Positions 5,738 through 47,815 of a DNA stretch of 64,000 bases are shown here, one piece after another. How positions within the stretch are numbered: position 1 is the stretch's first letter; the number at the start of each line of letters is the position of its first letter. The notes beneath the pieces are model-generated. The model searched no databases. It worked only from the letters and a program-made list of their open reading frames with translations, and was not told the origin of the DNA. The stretch is from an uncultured Chloroflexia bacterium (GTDB lineage Bacteria > Chloroflexota > Limnocylindria > Limnocylindrales > CSP1-4), in the NCBI GenBank assembly GCA_963829295.1, contig CAWHHU010000003.1, positions 360,157 to 424,156 of the forward strand, in the 5' to 3' direction. Position numbers and translations under genes: made by a program.

Positions 5738-6552
5738 TGCTCCGCCGCCGGGTCATCCCGTGCCTCGACGTCGCCCACGGCCGCGTGGTCAAGGGCACCC
5801 GGTTCGTCGACCTCGTCGATGCCGGCGACCCGCCCGAGCTCGCCGAGCGCTACGCGCGCGAGGGGGCGGACGAGCTGGTGTTCCTGGACATCACGGCCGC
5901 CCCCGAGGAGCGCGGCACCCTGCTCGAGGTCGTGGAGCGCACGGCCCGCCGAGCGTTCATCCCGCTCACCGTGGGTGGTGGCGTGCGCAGCGTTGACGAG
6001 ATGCGCGACGTGCTCCGCGCGGGAGCCGACAAGGTCAGCCTCAACACCCGCGCGGTCGCCGAGCCGGAGCTGGTTGGCCGGTGTGCGGCCCGGTTCGGCA
6101 GCCAGGCCGTGGTGGTGGCGATCGACGCGCGACGGGTGGCCGGAGCCGGCCCCGACGATCCGGGCCGGGCCGACGGCGCCTCGGGCTTCGAGGTCGTCGT
6201 GCGCGGTGGCCGGGACCCTGCCGGCCTCGACGCTGTCGCCTGGGCCGTGCGGGCGGTCGAGCTCGGGGCGGGCGAGCTGCTGGTGACCTCGATCGACCGC
6301 GACGGGACCGGGCTGGGCTTCGACACCGATCTCCTGCGCGCGATCACCGATCGGGTGGAGGTCCCGGTGATCGCCTCGGGCGGGGCCGCCGGCCCGGCCG
6401 ACTTCGTGGCCGCCATCCGGCAGGGCGGCGCCGATGCGGTGCTCGCGGCCGGCATCTTCCACCGCCGGGAGGTCTCGATCGCCGACGTCAAGGCGGGGAT
6501 GGCCGCCGCCGGGCTACCGGTGCGAGCCGTCTCACCGGAGGTCGCCGCATGA
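5737..6552 (+). CDS. hisF: Imidazole glycerol phosphate synthase, cyclase subunit
   Basis: [17 protein letters not shown]...[10 protein letters not shown]...ASGGAG are HisF motifs. ATG at 5737 overlaps the hisH TGA (TGATG). There is no hisA between hisH and hisF. Confidence 0.95.
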
Positions 6553-20638: not shown

Positions 20639-20979
20639 CTGATTGACACGCAGGTCTCGGCTGATGACGTGGTCCCTTTGTTAGAACGGTGTTGGGTTTG
20701 CGGCGCGTGCGGGGAAGCACCCGGCGCGGTCGCCGCGGGAGGATAGCACACGCGTTCTCGGGGTCGCAATGAAGCCGACCCCCGTTGAGACGGCGTGCAG
20801 AGCGCTGGCAGGGGCGACTCGCCCGGGCCCGTGGAACCGTATCCTCGGATCCCCTCGTCCTTGCCAGCGTGAGGCAGCCCGGGCGCCGCCGACGTTGCCC
20901 GGCACGAGGAGCCGGCCGCGCTGGCGGCACGTTCTCCGCGTACCGGCTGCGCCTCCATCGTCCCGCCGTTGGCTGATGT

Positions 20980-22848
20980 TCAGCTCAGGCGCCGCTCGCG
21001 CGCCTCATCAGCCAGCCGGGTGGCGAGGTCGGTCCAGCCGACCCCCTGCTCCTGCGAGCCGTCGCGCCGGCGGACGGAGACCGTCCTGGCCTCGACCTCG
21101 CGGTCGCCGAGGATGAGCATGTACGGCACCTTCTGGCCCTGCGCGAGCCGGATCTTGTTCTGCATCCGGTTATCCGAGTCGTCCACCTCGACGAACCGCA
21201 GCCCGGCGGCGCGCAGCGCGTCCGCCAGCTCGCGAGCCGCATCGACGTGGCGATCGGCGATCGGGATCACCACCGCCTGAACCGGCGCGCACCACAGCGG
21301 GAACGCGCCCGCGAAGTGCTCGGTCAGCACCCCGATGAACCGTTCCAGCGAGCCGTACACGGCGCGGTGGATCGCGACCGGCCGCTGCTGCGTGCCGGCC
21401 TCGTCGATGTAGGTCAGGTCGAACCGCTCGGGCAGCATCACCCGGTCCACCTGGATCGTCGCGGTCTGCCACTCACGGCCCAGCGCGTCGGTGATCTGGA
21501 TGTCGATCTTGGGCGCGTAGAAGGCGCCGTCCTTCTCCTTCACGCGATACTGGAGCCCCGAGCGGTCGAGCTCGGTGCGCATGATCGCCTCGGTCTCCGC
21601 CCACACGGCCGGGTCGCCCAGGGCCTTGTCGGGCCGGGTGCCGAAGGTGAGCGTCGGCGTCAGCCCGAACCACGAGTATGCCTCGCGGATCTCGCCCATC
21701 AGCGCCTCGATCTCGGCCGCGATCTGGTCCGGACGCACGAAGATGTGCGCGTCATCGGTCACGAAGTGGCGGACGCGGGTCAGGCCCGACAGCACCCCCG
21801 ACAGCTCGTTGCGGTGGAGGACCCCGTATTCGGACAGGCGCAGCGGCAGGTCGCGGTACGAGCGCAGCCGAGATCGGTACAGGAATGACGACTCGGGGCA
21901 GTTCATCGGCTTGAGGCTGAACCACTGATCCTCGACGTCGACCAGGTACATGTTGTCGCGGTAGAGGTCCCAGTGCCCGGAGCGCTCCCACAGCTTCTGG
22001 TGGACGAGGGGCGGCGTGTAAATTTCGTCGTACCCGCGCCGGTCCTGGAGCTCGCGCATCGCGTCGCGCAGCGTCCGGTACAGCCGCCAGCCCTTGGGAT
22101 GCCAGAAGGCGGCACCCGGTGAGACGTCATGGAAGCTGAACAGGTCGAGCTGGACGCCCAGCTTGCGGTGGTCGCGCTTCCGGGCCTCCTCCCGCTGCCA
22201 CAGGTAGTGATCGAGCGCCTGCTGCGTCTCCCAGACCGTCCCATAGATCCGCTGCAGCGACTGGCGCGACTGATCGCCTCGCCAGTACGCGGCCGAGACC
22301 GCAAGCAGCTTGAAGGGCCCGATCCTGCCGGTGGACTCGACGTGCGGCCCACGGCACAGGTCGCGGAACGGACCGTGTTCGAAGAAGCTGACCGGTGGCA
22401 TCGGCTCACCCGTCTCGGCCGCCCTGCGCGCCAGGTCGTCGAGGATCTCGACCTTGAACGGTTGACCCGCGCGCTCTTCGATCGCACGCCCCTCGTCGAA
22501 CGGGACCTCACGGCGCACGAAGGCGTGATCGGCCGCGATGCTGCTCCGCATCCGCGCCTCGATCGCCTCGAGGTCGTCCGGGGTCAGTGGTCGCGGGAGG
22601 TCGAAGTCGTAGTAGAAGCCGTTCGCGATCGCCGGCCCAATGCCCAGCCTGGCATCCGGGAACAGGTCGAGCACGGCCTCTGCCATCACATGAGCAGCGG
22701 AGTGGCGCATGGCGTCGATGGGCGCCTGCGCGCCGGCGTCGAGCAGCTCGTCGGCCGACCCTCGCGATGATGCCTCGAAGGCCAGCTCCTCGTCGTCATC
22801 GGGCCGCCCGTCCTGGACCTGTGCCTGATCGTCCGTCATGTCATCCAC
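20980..22848 (-). CDS. thrS: Threonyl-tRNA synthetase lacking the N-terminal TGS domain
   Basis: Second additional domain HxxxH (RHSAAHVMAEAV). Class II motifs. Anticodon-binding domain. The RHSxAH motif begins ~45 aa from the start, versus ~70 in E. coli ThrRS. The N-terminus is acidic (MDDMTDDQAQVQDGRPDDDEE). Confidence 0.95.
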   Translation of the reverse strand: MDDMTDDQAQVQDGRPDDDEELAFEASSRGSADELLDAGAQAPIDAMRHSAAHVMAEAVLDLFPDARLGIGPAIANGFYYDFDLPRPLTPDDLEAIEARMRSSIAADHAFVRREVPFDEGRAIEERAGQPFKVEILDDLARRAAETGEPMPPVSFFEHGPFRDLCRGPHVESTGRIGPFKLLAVSAAYWRGDQSRQSLQRIYGTVWETQQALDHYLWQREEARKRDHRKLGVQLDLFSFHDVSPGAAFWHPKGWRLYRTLRDAMRELQDRRGYDEIYTPPLVHQKLWERSGHWDLYRDNMYLVDVEDQWFSLKPMNCPESSFLYRSRLRSYRDLPLRLSEYGVLHRNELSGVLSGLTRVRHFVTDDAHIFVRPDQIAAEIEALMGEIREAYSWFGLTPTLTFGTRPDKALGDPAVWAETEAIMRTELDRSGLQYRVKEKDGAFYAPKIDIQITDALGREWQTATIQVDRVMLPERFDLTYIDEAGTQQRPVAIHRAVYGSLERFIGVLTEHFAGAFPLWCAPVQAVVIPIADRHVDAARELADALRAAGLRFVEVDDSDNRMQNKIRLAQGQKVPYMLILGDREVEARTVSVRRRDGSQEQGVGWTDLATRLADEARERRLS

Positions 22849-23142
22849 TCCCGAGAATCACAGAACCTCTCGTCCCGACAGGACGAGAGGTCCGACCTCC
22901 CGCGGTTCCACCCGCCTTCACGGTGCGGCACCCTGAGGGCCGCCGTTGCCGTGCGCTCGTGCCGCGCTAACGGGCGGATCCCGGGCCGGTTCGCCGGCCG
23001 CTCACGGGTGGTGCCGCCACCGGTCGGATCGGTCGGGGCTCACAGCCGATGGCCCCGGCTCTCTGGCGATCTCGCGGTGGAGCGTGTCCCGCTCAACGCG
23101 TTGCTTCTGTGTCGCTGCCGGCGGCACGCGGCCGACCGACGA
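22849..23142 (-). promoter_or_regulatory. T-box leader (probable Thr specifier) upstream of thrS
   Basis: The minus strand contains the T-box consensus GGGTGGAACCGCGG (forward 22901-22914). It is immediately followed by a terminator hairpin ACCTCTCGTCC-TGTCGG-GGACGAGAGGT (forward 22866-22892) and an AGAGAG GA-motif. ACC triplets lie in the putative stem I region (~23000-23090). Confidence 0.55.
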
Positions 23143-23219
23143 TGGTGGGCGATACTGGACTCGAACCAGTGACCTCATGCATGTCAAGCATGCGCTCTAA
23201 CCAGCTGAGCTAATCGCCC
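23143..23219 (-). tRNA. tRNA-Val (anticodon GAC), CCA encoded
   Basis: The minus strand reads GGGCGATTAGCTCAGCTGGTTAGAGCGCATGCTTGACATGCATGAGGTCACTGGTTCGAGTCCAGTATCGCCCACCA. This gives a cloverleaf with a 7-bp acceptor stem, anticodon stem CATGC/GCATG and loop TTGACAT. Confidence 0.9.
23179..23219. repeat. attL core: 41-nt direct repeat, equal to tRNA-Val nt 1-41
   Basis: Identical to 47769..47815 apart from a 6-nt CTCTAA duplication in the distal copy. Confidence 0.8.
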
Positions 23220-23282
23220 GATGATTTTGTCGAGCTCCTGTTCGGGTTCACCCGATAACTGGTTCTCGACGATCCTGGCCTC

Positions 23283-23311
23283 TTGACCATGGCGCTCGTA
23301 CACCCTATAAC
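23283..23311 (+). promoter_or_regulatory. Sigma70-like promoter TTGACC-17-TATAAC upstream of the integrase gene
   Basis: Near-consensus -35/-10 with 17-bp spacing, ~40 nt upstream of the int ATG. Confidence 0.4.
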
Positions 23312-23350
23312 TAACGTGGTTCCAACCCGCCGATCCGGGGAGCACGAACG

Positions 23351-24337
23351 ATGACCGGTCAAGCGGCCAAGGCCGCGATTGTAGCAACCGAGGGCGACCT
23401 CGGCGCCAACCTCGCCCGCTTCCGGCGCAGCCTGCGCGCCGAGAACGTCAGCCCCAACACGCTCCTCGCCTACGGTGGCGCGGTCGAGCGGCTCGCCGGC
23501 TACCTGACGGCCGAGGCAATGCCGACCGATGTTGGCGCCATTCGCCGCGAGCACATCGAGGCGTTCATCGCGGACGCGCTCGAGCGCTTCAAGCCCGCGA
23601 CCGCCAACCACCGCTTCCGCGGCGTCCAGCGCTTCTTCAACTACCTCGTCGATGAGGGCGAGCTGGCGGCGTCGCCAATGGCCCGGATGCGGCCGCCGCG
23701 CATTCCCGACGACCCGCCCGCGGTCCTGTCCCGGGCCGACCAGGCGCGCCTGCTCACGGCCTGCGAGGGCGCCGACTTCGAGGCGCGGCGCGACCGGGCG
23801 ATCATCAGCGTGTTCCTTGATACCGGGGCCCGTCGGGCCGAGGTGGCCGGTCTGCGCTGGACGCCCGCGGATGACGCGACCAACGACGCCGACCTCGACG
23901 GTCGCGCGATCAGGGTCCTCGGCAAGGGCCGGCGCGAACGGCTGGTCAGGATCGGCCACAAGACCGTCAAGGACCTCGATCGCTACCTCGCCCTGCGGGC
24001 GCGCCACCCGCAGGCGCACCTGGCCGCCCTGTGGATTGGTCGCCGCGGCGCGCTGACCGACTCGGGCATCGGGCAGCTCGTCCAGGAGCGGGGCCGGGCG
24101 GCCGGGCTCGGCGACAACCTCCATCCGCATCAGCTGCGGCACACCTTCGCCCATGAATGGTTGGCGGCCGGCGGAAACGAGGGCGATCTCATGCGGCTCG
24201 CGGGCTGGCGCTCGCGAGCGATGCTCCAGCGCTACGCGGCGTCGACCGCCCAGGACCGCGCGCTCGCTGCCCACGATCGGATCTCAGCCCAAGGATCGCC
24301 TCTGAGGAGACTTGGTCGCTCCGGCCCCGGAACTTAA
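23351..24337 (+). CDS. int: Tyrosine recombinase / phage-type integrase (XerC/XerD-like)
   Basis: N-terminal SAM-like core-binding domain. Catalytic R...HxxR...Y ([28 protein letters not shown]). Confidence 0.9.
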
Positions 24338-29166: not shown

Positions 29167-29408
29167 CCCGGATGAATGACCAGCAGGCGATCACATGCGG
29201 GAGCGGACACAAACGAACCGATCACCCGTATGGGGTCCCGCGTCGAAGGTGCGCCGAGCACACACGGACCGCGCGGCAGCAGTGGGGCACGCAAGACCCC
29301 ACGGCGCGACCGATCCATCGACCGACCAAACGCGTGTTTGGCGCCGTTCCGGACGATCGCGTTGTTCCGTTTGTGCAACGTCCCGCGTTTCCCAATTCAG
29401 GGCGACCT

Positions 29409-30496
29409 CAACCAGGGGCTTCATCGACCCTCGATTTCGAGGGCGGCCCAGTCCCATCTCCTCTCCGGCGGCACGGCCATGAACCCCGGAGCCACCGATC
29501 GATCCACGCCGCCGTCGCGAGGGGACGGAGCCTTCCGATCGACCGGCCGGCCGCCGGGCCGCACGGTCACGGCGCCGGCCTCGAGGGTGACGACCCGCCA
29601 CGGCGTCTGCGACCGGCAGGGCGACGGCCCCGACCCTGATTGACACGGCGGACGGCTTGCGCTGGCAGCCATGGTTCCGCCGAGACGTCGAGCGGGCGGT
29701 CGACCGCCGAGGTCAGCCGCCGGCTTCGACCCTAGCCACTTCGGCCGTCGCAGGGAACCCGGATTCCGTGCAAGATTCTGTGTATTGTCAGCTCCGCTAC
29801 GTCCCGATTGACACCCAGAATTACGTGTGCGACGCTCCCATCGTGCTCAAGACGAAGCGGACGTACAACCTCAGCCGGCGGACGATCGAGACGGTTCAGG
29901 CGCTCGCGGAGCGGAAGGTCGCGCCGACCCAGGACGCCCTCGTCGAGCTCGCCGTCGACGAGCTCGCCCGCCATGTCCGCGAGACCGACGAAGCGGCCGC
30001 CTGGGCGGGCGCGGCCACCGATCCGGACTTTGTCGCCGAGGCCGCCGAGCTCGAGGCGGCATATGGCGACGCCGACCCGGCCACGTGGCCGAGACCGTAG
30101 GGCTGCCAGCGCTCCGCTGGGCCGTCGTGATCGTCGGACTCGATCCGGTGGAGGGTCACGAGCAGGCCGGTGAGCGGCGGGCGCTGGTCGTGAGCTATGA
30201 GGCGTTCCACCGCTCGGGGCTGCTGACCGTGTGTCCGATCAGCGCCGCCCGCGAGAAGCCGCGCTATCCGGGCGAGGTCGCGATCCCGGCCGGCGAAGGT
30301 GGCCAGACGAAGTCCGGGCTCATCCTGTGCGCCCAGGTCCGGACGATCTCGGTCCGTCGGATCCGGGCGACCGGCATCCTGCCCGGTGGCGGCGTCGCCC
30401 ACCTCACCGACGCCCGGATCCGCTCGGCGGTGCGAGCGGCCCTTCGACACCACCTCGGGCTCGATATCCCAGCCCAGTCGGACGGGGCGGCGAGCG
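29409..30496. repeat. Copy A of a duplicated 1088-bp segment (operator region + RHH antitoxin + MazF toxin)
   Basis: Identical to 40277..41228 except for a 136-bp deletion in copy B. Diverged (~78%) homology extends left, with 28985-29140 matching 39360-39515. Confidence 0.85.
29843..30100 (+). CDS. Ribbon-helix-helix type antitoxin, cognate to the downstream MazF
   Basis: VLKTKRTYNLSRRTIETVQALAERKVAPTQDALVELAV... is an RHH DNA-binding N-terminus with an acidic C-terminal tail. It is located just upstream of the toxin and overlaps it by 16 nt. Confidence 0.5.
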   Translation: MLKTKRTYNLSRRTIETVQALAERKVAPTQDALVELAVDELARHVRETDEAAAWAGAATDPDFVAEAAELEAAYGDADPATWPRP

Positions 30497-40120: not shown

Positions 40121-40276
40121 AAGCTGAGCGGTCGTGGCAACGTCGCAGCGGCAGAGAATCCGCGGGCGGGCCCGGTCACGGGTGCGGAGGCACCCCGGAT
40201 CGATGACTAGCCGGCGATCACATGCGGGAGCGGATCATGACGAGGCCCAGATCTCGCACGCGTTCGAGGACATGCT

Positions 40277-41228
40277 CAACCAGGGGCTTCATCGACCCTC
40301 GATTTCGAGGGCGGCCCAGTCCCATCTCCTCTCCGGCGGCACGGCCATGAACCCCGGAGCCACCGATCGATCCACGCCGCCGTCGCGAGGGGACGGAGCC
40401 TTCCGATCGACCGGCCGGCCGCCGGGCCGCACGGTCACGGCGCCGGCCTCGAGGGTGACGACCCGCCACGGCGTCTGCGACCGGCAGGGCGACGGCCCCG
40501 ACCCTGATTGACACGGCGGACGGCTTGCGCTGGCAGCCATGGTTCCGCCGAGACGTCGAGCGGGCGGTCGACCGCCGAGGTCAGCCGCCGGCTTCGACCC
40601 TAGCCACTTCGGCCGTCGCAGGGAACCCGGATTCCGTGCAAGATTCTGTGTATTGTCAGCTCCGCTACGTCCCGATTGACACCCACGATGACGTGTGCAA
40701 CGCTCCCATCGTGCTCAAGACGAAGCGGCCGCCTGGGCGGGCGCGGCCACCGATCCCGACTTTGTCGGCGAGGCCGCCGAGCTCGAGGCGGCATATGGCG
40801 ACGCCGAGCCGGCCACGTGGCCGAGACCGTAGGGCTGCCAGCGCTCCGCTGGGCCGTCGTGATCGTCGGACTCGATCCGGTGGAGGGTCACGAGCAGGCC
40901 GGTGAGCGGCGGGCGCTGGTCGTGAGCTATGAGGCGTTCCACCGCTCGGGGCTGCTGACCGTGTGTCCGATCAGCGCCGCCCGCGAGAAGCCGCGCTATC
41001 CGGGCGAGGTCGCGATCCCGGCCGGCGAAGGTGGCCAGACGAAGTCCGGGCTCATCCTGTGCGCCCAGGTCCGGACGATCTCGGTCCGTCGGATCCGGGC
41101 GACCGGCATCCTGCCCGGTGGCGGCGTCGCCCACCTCACCGACGCCCGGATCCGCTCGGCGGTGCGAGCGGCCCTCCGACACCACCTCGGGCTCGATATC
41201 CCAGCCCAGTCGGACGGGGCGGCGAGCG
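40277..41228. repeat. Copy B of the duplicated TA segment, with an internal 136-bp deletion
   Basis: Identical to 29409..30496 minus the 136 bp between two GACGAAGCGG direct repeats (A: 29851-29860 and 29987-29996). Confidence 0.85.
40711..40832 (+). pseudogene. RHH antitoxin remnant (RHH domain deleted, downstream frame shifted)
   Basis: VLKTKR is followed directly by the post-deletion sequence. The 136-nt deletion is not a multiple of 3. Confidence 0.5.
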
Positions 41229-47768: not shown

Positions 47769-47815
47769 GCATGTCAAGCATGCGCTCTAACTCTAACCAG
47801 CTGAGCTAATCGCCC
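47769..47815. repeat. attR core: 5' 41 nt of tRNA-Val with a 6-nt CTCTAA internal duplication (tRNA fragment, non-functional)
   Basis: GCATGTCAAGCATGCGCTCTAAC[TCTAAC]CAGCTGAGCTAATCGCCC matches 23179..23219. There is no D/T-arm completion and no 3' half. Confidence 0.8.

Follow-up and report, generated by a model that had tools for sequence, protein, structure and literature searches.

A predicted threonine T-box leader between tRNA-Val and thrS in a GC-rich genome of the Chloroflexota

On the minus strand of the 64,000-nt stretch of contig CAWHHU010000003.1 analyzed here (in the following: the window), a gene for tRNA-Val(GAC) is followed by thrS, and approximately 250 nt between a spacer behind the tRNA and the Shine-Dalgarno sequence (SD) of thrS form a structured leader. 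This arrangement raises the question whether thrS is controlled by a riboswitch and whether the tRNA belongs to the same transcript. A first-pass annotation, made from the sequence alone, had proposed a T-box leader for threonine that is possibly co-transcribed with the tRNA. Based on the comparison with related thrS loci, which are designated by numbers (L001, L002 and so on), the leader can with high confidence be regarded as a canonical transcription-attenuating tRNA-Thr T-box controlling thrS within an ancient tRNA-Val(GAC)-thrS unit, most likely transcribed as one RNA.

All coordinates given below refer to the minus strand unless stated otherwise. The tRNA-Val(GAC) gene comprises positions 23143-23219 including an encoded CCA (ARAGORN; 72.1 bits with the Rfam tRNA model) and is followed by a spacer of 43 nt (23100-23142), defined by sequence and folding, which extends to Stem I of the leader. 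Downstream of the leader, the SD GGGAG (22852-22848) precedes the reading frame of thrS (20980-22839; ATG at 22839, stop at 20980; TIGR00418, 634 bits), whose start ATG-ACG-GAC was also kept in L001.

Architecture of the leader

All modules of a T-box were present in the leader of the window in canonical order. Stem I (23000-23099), as determined by alignment to the Rfam T-box model RF00230, a structure written by hand and pair counts, contains a K-turn (GC-GUUGAG-CGGG / CCCG-UGA-GC), the specifier loop, an AG bulge CCAGAGAG (23066-23059) that includes AGAGAG at 23064-23059, and a distal loop (23052-23039; RF00230 alignment and hand structure). According to the RF00230 alignment and the comparison of leaders, the specifier triplet is ACC (Thr) at 23010-23012, and the next base is a purine, A at 23009. 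Stem I is followed by Stem II (GGCCGG-CGAA-CCGGCC, 22984-22999), the Stem IIA/B pseudoknot element (22961-22983) with the F-box CCGUUA at 22973-22968, and Stem III (22919-22953).

The 3' domain can form two alternative structures. The antiterminator (22877-22916) consists of helix A1 (GGCGGG/CCUGUC), a 7-nt bulge UGGAACC and helix A2 (GCGGGAGGU/ACCUCUCGU), and includes the T-box core GGGTGGAACCGCGG (RNA form GGGUGGAACCGCGG) at 22913-22900, which was assigned by sequence match. The intrinsic terminator (22853-22893) comprises a 13-bp hairpin at 22893-22863 with the arms CCTCTCGTCC (22890-22881) and GGACGAGAGG (22875-22866), followed by the U-rich tail UUCUGUGAUUCUC; the end of the hairpin lies 23 nt from the ATG of thrS. 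The 5' arm of the terminator is also part of the antiterminator, the strand taking part in both helices being CUCGUCC, so that the two structures are mutually exclusive. Folding of the 3' domain resulted in -35.9 kcal/mol for the terminator compared to -23.8 kcal/mol for the enforced antiterminator, which alone is approximately 12 kcal/mol weaker.

The motifs quoted in the first-pass annotation (T-box core, terminator arms, AGAGAG and ACC) were all found on the minus strand, and the alternative pairing of antiterminator and terminator that it had named as a check was found as well. Its description of the core as carrying one mismatch to the consensus needs a correction: the core is there, while the supposed mismatch lies at the N of UGGN, which by definition may be any base; the match is therefore perfect.

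With this architecture, the leader would be expected to act as follows. The specifier ACC in the loop of Stem I would pair with the GGU anticodon of tRNA-Thr, while the platform formed by AG bulge and distal loop would stack on the tRNA elbow. The free NCCA end of an uncharged tRNA could pair with UGGA of the 7-nt T-box bulge and thereby stabilize the antiterminator, upon which RNA polymerase would read into thrS. In the presence of charged tRNA, the terminator hairpin with its U-rich tail would form and transcription would end upstream of the start codon.

Conservation in related leaders

For the comparison, the canonical T-box structure was written by hand on the sequence of the window, and 18 leaders, which could be aligned from end to end, were aligned with MAFFT, an alignment that is not fitted to structure. 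As a control, the 3' partners of all pairs were shifted by 1-3 columns (slid control). The alignment showed 83-84% of cells paired compared to 38-50% in the slid control, and changes on both sides were found at 31-36 pairs; none of 500 shuffles matched the observed values. The terminator was paired to 97% with compensatory changes in 5 pairs, and Stem II likewise to 97% with compensatory GC/AU changes. For the outer helix of Stem III, 93-94% paired cells and compensatory changes in 4-5 of 5 pairs were determined. Stem IIA was paired to 94%, and one pair of the IIA/B pseudoknot changed from C-G to U-A in 2 sequences. Both antiterminator helices were paired to 99-100%; where they changed at all, one partner was exchanged and the pair preserved (G-U to A-U or G-C). 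The F-box CCGUUA was invariant in the 18 leaders, and the UGA/GA residues, AGAGAG and GGCUGnGA were invariant or near-invariant, while their flanking helices were paired to 96-100% and showed compensatory changes. Three weak helices are located in length-variable parts, which were misaligned by MAFFT.

With a covariance model of the clade, by which these helices were realigned, 48 leaders were found in the fetched loci. The alignment obtained with this model showed 90.5% of cells paired compared to 37-48% in the slid control, and compensatory changes in 41 of 48 pairs, although these values come from an alignment fitted to the model and are therefore biased toward structure. Essentially all thrS leaders had the specifier ACC (two had ACU), with A, C or G as the next base. 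Their T-box bulge was UGGAACC or UGGGACC. The N of UGGN, expected to complement the discriminator base of the cognate tRNA, was A or G in all of them, and U in a pheS-type leader, which is an indirect hint at this match.

This pheS-type leader is a second T-box that was observed downstream of thrS in L081 (5779-6046; specifier UUC, bulge UGGUACC). L063 likewise showed a second T-box leader downstream of thrS (5798-6107). The second T-box of L081 is probably a pheS(T) T-box and serves as an internal control. In the window, no second T-box, for example before pheS, was found with the clade model; the gap upstream of pheS comprises approximately 130 nt.

On the MAFFT alignment, RNAalifold suggested a long-range pairing CCACCCG/CGGGUGG that would join the specifier region to the T-box core. 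Since all columns of this pairing are invariant, it has no covariation support, and it was rejected as an artefact caused by two motifs that contain CGGG.

The Rfam threshold

Several observations weigh against the assignment as a T-box. In a scan of the whole window, RF00230 gave no match at the gathering score. A permissive scan of 701 nt yielded only 23.0 bits compared to the gathering score of 93 (E = 0.0056). The S-turn of the specifier loop (AGUA/GAA), which is retained in the Anaerolineae leaders L018, L040 and L118, was not recognizable in the leaders of the Limnocylindria, which showed ACRCGCY / GRCGGC instead. In addition, the U tract of the terminator is interrupted, with 7 U in 13 nt, and neither the window nor the 160 fetched loci contained a tRNA-Thr gene whose discriminator base could be compared with UGGA.

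Taken by itself, the low score could mean that an ordinary 5' untranslated region of GC-rich sequence resembles a T-box by chance. The probability of such a coincidence is negligible, and it can be considered refuted by the comparative data, i.e. by the conservation and covariation of the full set of modules across more than 40 loci, the near-invariant ACC specifier and the mutually exclusive helices. Furthermore, the permissive alignment extended over the full length of the model (1-219) with sensibly placed modules, and 26 bits were assigned to the composition-bias term. At the homologous site of the relatives, full-length matches to RF00230 were obtained with 107 bits (L124), 89 bits (L040), 77 bits (L134), 60 bits (L008), 57 bits (L018), 55 bits (L006) and 27 bits (L002), compared to the 23 bits of the window; L001 was not among the matches listed. 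The score at one and the same site climbs from 23 to 107 bits as the GC content drops, and the leader of the window has a GC content of 71%. On this comparison, the score below the threshold is the tail of a continuum resulting from GC content and divergence and not evidence of absence.

A score below the RF00230 threshold had been named in the first-pass annotation as an argument against the T-box, and formally the outcome was negative. Nonetheless, this negative is not decisive, because it is overridden by the comparative evidence in the relatives, by which the element is real: a Thr T-box on thrS with alternative terminator and antiterminator is borne out by conservation, covariation and folding energies. 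Altogether, positions 22853-23099 are, judged from sequence comparison, a complete transcription-attenuating Thr T-box leader between tRNA-Val(GAC) and thrS. The gathering cut-off is too strict for a divergent leader of 71% GC. An entire clade of high-GC T-box leaders is missed at this cut-off, and annotation pipelines therefore under-call T-boxes in uncultured Chloroflexota.

Mode of control and relation to known T-boxes

In actinobacterial ileS leaders, T-boxes act at the level of translation, with a shortened Stem I and sequestration of the SD. These leaders share with the window the high-GC host and the association with an aminoacyl-tRNA synthetase gene outside the Firmicutes. A corresponding mode for thrS, in which the 3' hairpin would sequester the ribosome binding site instead of terminating transcription, would fit the high GC content of the genome, the imperfect U tract behind the hairpin (UUCUGUGAUUCUC) and the location of the SD just approximately 11 nt downstream of the hairpin. 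Yet the hairpin includes no part of SD or ATG, and all relatives have kept a U-rich tail behind it (TTTTTTT in L008). Based on both observations, transcription attenuation is the likely mode rather than SD sequestration. In contrast to the reduced ileS type, the leader also has a full-length Stem I together with Stem II and IIA/B, and translational control of thrS is considered very improbable.

Compared to the Thr T-box class (RF00230; Bacillus subtilis thrS and thrZ, thrS leaders of Chloroflexi), the leader agrees in Stem I with its K-turn, the specifier ACC followed by a purine, the AG bulge and the distal loop, in Stem II, the IIA/B pseudoknot with F-box and Stem III, as well as in the 14-nt core with UGGN bulge, the competing antiterminator and terminator and the site directly upstream of thrS. 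It differs by its GC content and its score far below the Rfam cut-off, by the unrecognizable S-turn AGUA/GAA, by a Stem II cut to a 6-bp tetraloop hairpin and by the fact that it abuts a tRNA-Val gene and not a promoter.

The occurrence of T-boxes in Chloroflexi is documented (PMC2494555; PMC3766115; TBDB preprint); for Herpetosiphon, Chloroflexus and Roseiflexus, the list of Sun et al. 2013 (PMC3766115, Additional file 2) includes a Thr T-box on (Cagg_2512-)thrS. Within the literature library that was searched, nothing was found on T-boxes located downstream of tRNA genes, on a tRNA-Val/thrS/infC synteny or on T-boxes of Limnocylindria. The riboswitch itself is an ordinary Thr T-box, that is, a divergent high-GC addition to a known family in a phylum already known for Thr T-boxes on thrS.

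Among 185,579 species genomes, the closest thrS loci were all found in metagenome-assembled genomes (MAGs) of Chloroflexota, class Ca. Limnocylindria, with a protein identity of 84% for L001 and of 73-65% for L002-L007, and a metagenome scan added approximately 25 further loci of the Limnocylindria clade. The genome is therefore not actinobacterial, and discussing the locus in the frame of Actinobacteria, as was done at first, was wrong. The affinity to Terrabacteria suggested at the same time applies only loosely, in so far as the Chloroflexota belong there.

Connection of tRNA-Val and thrS

A tRNA-Val(GAC) gene on the same strand at most 900 nt upstream of thrS was found in 52 of the 137 loci with enough upstream sequence. 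These loci belong to Chloroflexota, Methylomirabilota, Chlorobiaceae, Ignavibacteriales, Desulfovibrionaceae, Geobacteraceae, Syntrophobacteraceae, Chromatiales and Ectothiorhodospiraceae. Most of them lacked a T-box, and the Firmicutes loci with a T-box on thrS lacked the tRNA-Val, which together indicates that the adjacency is an old synteny. Going by this distribution, the adjacency is no peculiarity of the present genome, but a widespread arrangement that mostly comprises no T-box, and in part of the Chloroflexota the T-box sits between the two partners of this presumably ancient pair.

The spacer, measured from the encoded CCA to the first pair of Stem I, amounted to only 9-13 nt in L006, L085, L086, L088, L090 and L100; L092 and L096, where the tRNA is cut by the contig end, fall into this range as well. 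Longer spacers were determined for L001 (31 nt), the window (43 nt), L081 (44 nt), L008 (47 nt), L108 (48 nt) and L002 (67 nt). The statement of the first-pass annotation that the leader begins within a few nucleotides of the tRNA thus applies to several relatives and not to the window, where the RF00230 alignment starts 37 nt after the CCA.

As a minimal -10 signature, the hexamer TAnnnT was surveyed across the loci. No such hexamer was found upstream of Stem I where the tRNA lies at most 48 nt away, including the window, whose spacer contains not a single TA dinucleotide. It was present in every leader without an adjacent intact tRNA (TATAGT in L101, TATGCT in L005 with its truncated tRNA, as well as L083 and L094), and besides in L002 with its spacer of 67 nt. 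Upstream of the tRNA, TAnnnT, often as extended -10 element TGnTAnnnT, was found 11-20 nt from the 5' end in 9 of 13 loci. In relatives without T-box, the distance from the CCA of the tRNA to the ATG of thrS comprised 28 nt (L097) or 40 nt (L007), holding just an SD. Moreover, window and L001 showed a nucleotide homology of 83% that begins exactly at nt 1 of the tRNA and continues through thrS.

The short spacers without a -10 element in the relatives strongly suggest co-transcription, and in combination with the TAnnnT pattern, the relatives without T-box and the homology to L001, a common transcript of tRNA-Val, leader and thrS is the best-supported reading for this lineage. The co-transcription proposed in the first-pass annotation is thereby retained as the most likely interpretation of the comparative data. 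A single transcript would start at a promoter upstream of tRNA-Val, and RNase P together with 3'-end processing would release the tRNA. The riboswitch RNA would accordingly owe its 5' end to processing and not to transcription initiation.

A sigma-70 consensus scan of positions 22700-23500 on both strands showed no promoter and one weak terminator-like site on the plus strand, with criteria too strict to be informative. The spacer of the window has neither a U tract nor a TAnnnT hexamer. A continuous transcript in the window itself is disfavored by the spacer length of 43 nt and by a stable GC-rich hairpin within the spacer (approximately 23117-23140, -15.8 kcal/mol), which could act as a partial stop. 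The tRNA transcript might end at this hairpin, while the leader, although a real T-box, would be transcribed with thrS as a separate unit from its own unrecognized promoter, located in or overlapping the tRNA's 3' end and the spacer. Such an arrangement would agree with the GC hairpins found right after the CCA in the spacers of 31-48 nt (window, L001, L081, L108 and L008), with TATCCT 22 nt before Stem I in L002, whose tRNA lies 67 nt away, with TATATT within the 16-nt spacer of L124 and with the poorly known promoter rules of Chloroflexota. However, the spacer hairpins comprise no U tract, and neither their sequence nor their presence is conserved. Since, in addition, the six to eight loci with the shortest spacers, the missing TA dinucleotide and the short distance in the relatives without T-box argue against a promoter at this position, two separate transcription units are regarded as unlikely, albeit as an alternative to be taken seriously.

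A mixed operon of tRNAs and mRNA is represented by thrU-tyrU-glyT-thrT-tufB of E. coli, from which the tRNAs are excised by RNase P and 3' processing. As in the window, where co-transcription is the favored reading, a tRNA gene lies upstream of a gene of the translation apparatus. In contrast to the E. coli operon, a riboswitch is located between tRNA and open reading frame in the window, and attenuation would decouple the output of protein from that of tRNA. Where the deep synteny of tRNA-Val(GAC) and thrS across phyla is combined with a T-box, units of tRNA, riboswitch and mRNA result whose spacers leave no room for a promoter. Such units could serve as a natural system for the function of a T-box whose 5' end comes from RNA processing.

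Two relatives showed insertions of 1.1-1.5 kb between tRNA-Val and T-box (L083, 761-2238; L094, 398-1460), with the -10-like hexamers TATACT and TAGACT just upstream of Stem I. In L005 (520-600), the 5' half of tRNA-Val was lost; the remnant GGGCG...CGGCTGGTTCGAGTCCAGCGCCGCCCACCA could fold as a minihelix of acceptor and T-arm, and the -10-like hexamer TATGCT precedes it.

An integrative island upstream of tRNA-Val

The region upstream of the tRNA in the window differs from that of the relatives by an island of approximately 24.6 kb (23220-47768) in the 5' part of the tRNA-Val gene, as indicated by direct repeats, an integrase, the empty site in L001 and the synteny of the far flank. Adjoining the tRNA, a phage-type tyrosine integrase is encoded on the plus strand (23351-24337; Phage_integrase domain match). 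Exact direct repeats of a 41-nt tRNA segment flank the island (23179-23219 and 47769-47815). The distal copy is a displaced 5' fragment of tRNA-Val, which was identified by its match to L001 and covers nt 1-41, up to and including the anticodon stem, with 6 nt duplicated. Before it, the native extended -10 element TGcTATTCT (47835-47827) is located; this element and its downstream context are those found before the intact tRNA-Val in L001, L083 and L002.

In L001, which represents the empty site, promoter and tRNA are uninterrupted, and its promoter together with the first approximately 40 nt of its tRNA matches positions 47839-47769 of the window. Beyond 50.1 kb, the order of the genes agrees with that found upstream of tRNA-Val in L006, L083, L091, L086 and L002. 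From these sequence matches, the region is an integrative island whose attP presumably carried the 5' part of the tRNA and which now sits upstream of the restored tRNA. Its GC content is heterogeneous (0.59-0.74), and it also encodes a Replic_Relax protein, an ABC/FtsX pair, an IstB fragment and a MazF-like toxin and contains internal repeats with 100% identity.

For co-transcription in the window itself, the island is unfavorable. The unit of tRNA, leader and thrS is intact, but parted from its native promoter by 24.6 kb, a displacement that also lends some support to a separate transcription of leader and thrS. No convincing promoter of the sigma-70 type was found in the 131 nt that belong to the island and now precede the tRNA; the lone candidate for the tRNA is TAGGGT at 23307-23302, which has no -35 element.

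In a more far-reaching interpretation, the Thr T-box of Limnocylindria and other Chloroflexota would obligately be an internal part of the precursor RNA of tRNA-Val and thrS, and the 5' end of the T-box would be generated by 3' processing of the tRNA only 9-13 nt upstream of Stem I. Folding and stability of the leader as well as the output of thrS would then be coupled to the maturation of tRNA-Val, and in the present genome a mobile island would have taken over the transcription of a tRNA and of an essential synthetase. This interpretation appears doubtful at present and is held to be quite unlikely.

The island resembles the arg2A-VII class of islands in Klebsiella (bioRxiv 10.1101/2020.11.02.365908), for which a tyrosine-integrase island is likewise located 5' of an intact tRNA with a displaced 5' fragment at the far end. 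It differs in the phylum, the target tRNA-Val and the identity block of nt 1-41, and by the fact that its tRNA heads an essential thrS unit under riboswitch control. For Klebsiella, integration on the upstream side of a tRNA is reported as a rare exception, and it was argued in the preprint cited that tRNA genes sharing a transcript with genes downstream of them are avoided by islands. The location of the present island on the unusual upstream side fits this published idea of a selection disfavoring insertion between a tRNA and its co-transcribed downstream genes.

A good sigma-70-like promoter (TTGACC-N17-TATAAC, 23265-23300, plus strand) was observed toward the integrase, i.e. divergent from the tRNA. 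In L082, a related integrase lies just upstream of the tRNA, and CAAATCAyC directly precedes the tRNA both there and in the window. Within the island, the blocks 29407-30286 and 40275-41018, approximately 10.8 kb apart, contain stretches of at least 300 nt with 99-100% identity, and nearby repeats of 84-138 nt are 78-87% identical. By their sequences, the two blocks look as if a small segment, mobile or duplicated, were present twice.

Additional observations

Behind thrS, infC and then pheS follow on the minus strand. The junction of thrS and infC varies among close relatives, with approximately 1.9 kb of extra sequence in L001 (5824-7746) that is absent from the window (20778-20980).

More distant loci with approximately 47% identity of the threonyl-tRNA synthetase (ThrRS), namely L077, L157, L158 and L160, showed full-length T-box-like leaders approximately 120 nt upstream of the thrS match, with the specifier ACC, the bulge UGGGACC and a score of 46 bits in the clade model. 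One of these genomes, L077, carries the label 'Escherichia coli ... cleanbin'. Since thrS of E. coli is not known to have a T-box, this label is probably wrong and the genome probably a mis-binned or mislabelled MAG.

A reduced leader was found in L082 (456-663), whose ThrRS is 76% identical. Only 52 nt lie between its tRNA-Val (465-541) and the T-box core at 594; Stem I, Stem II and IIA/B are gone, while Stem III, T-box core and terminator are kept. Decay of a riboswitch, a terminator that acts constitutively or an assembly problem could account for this leader.

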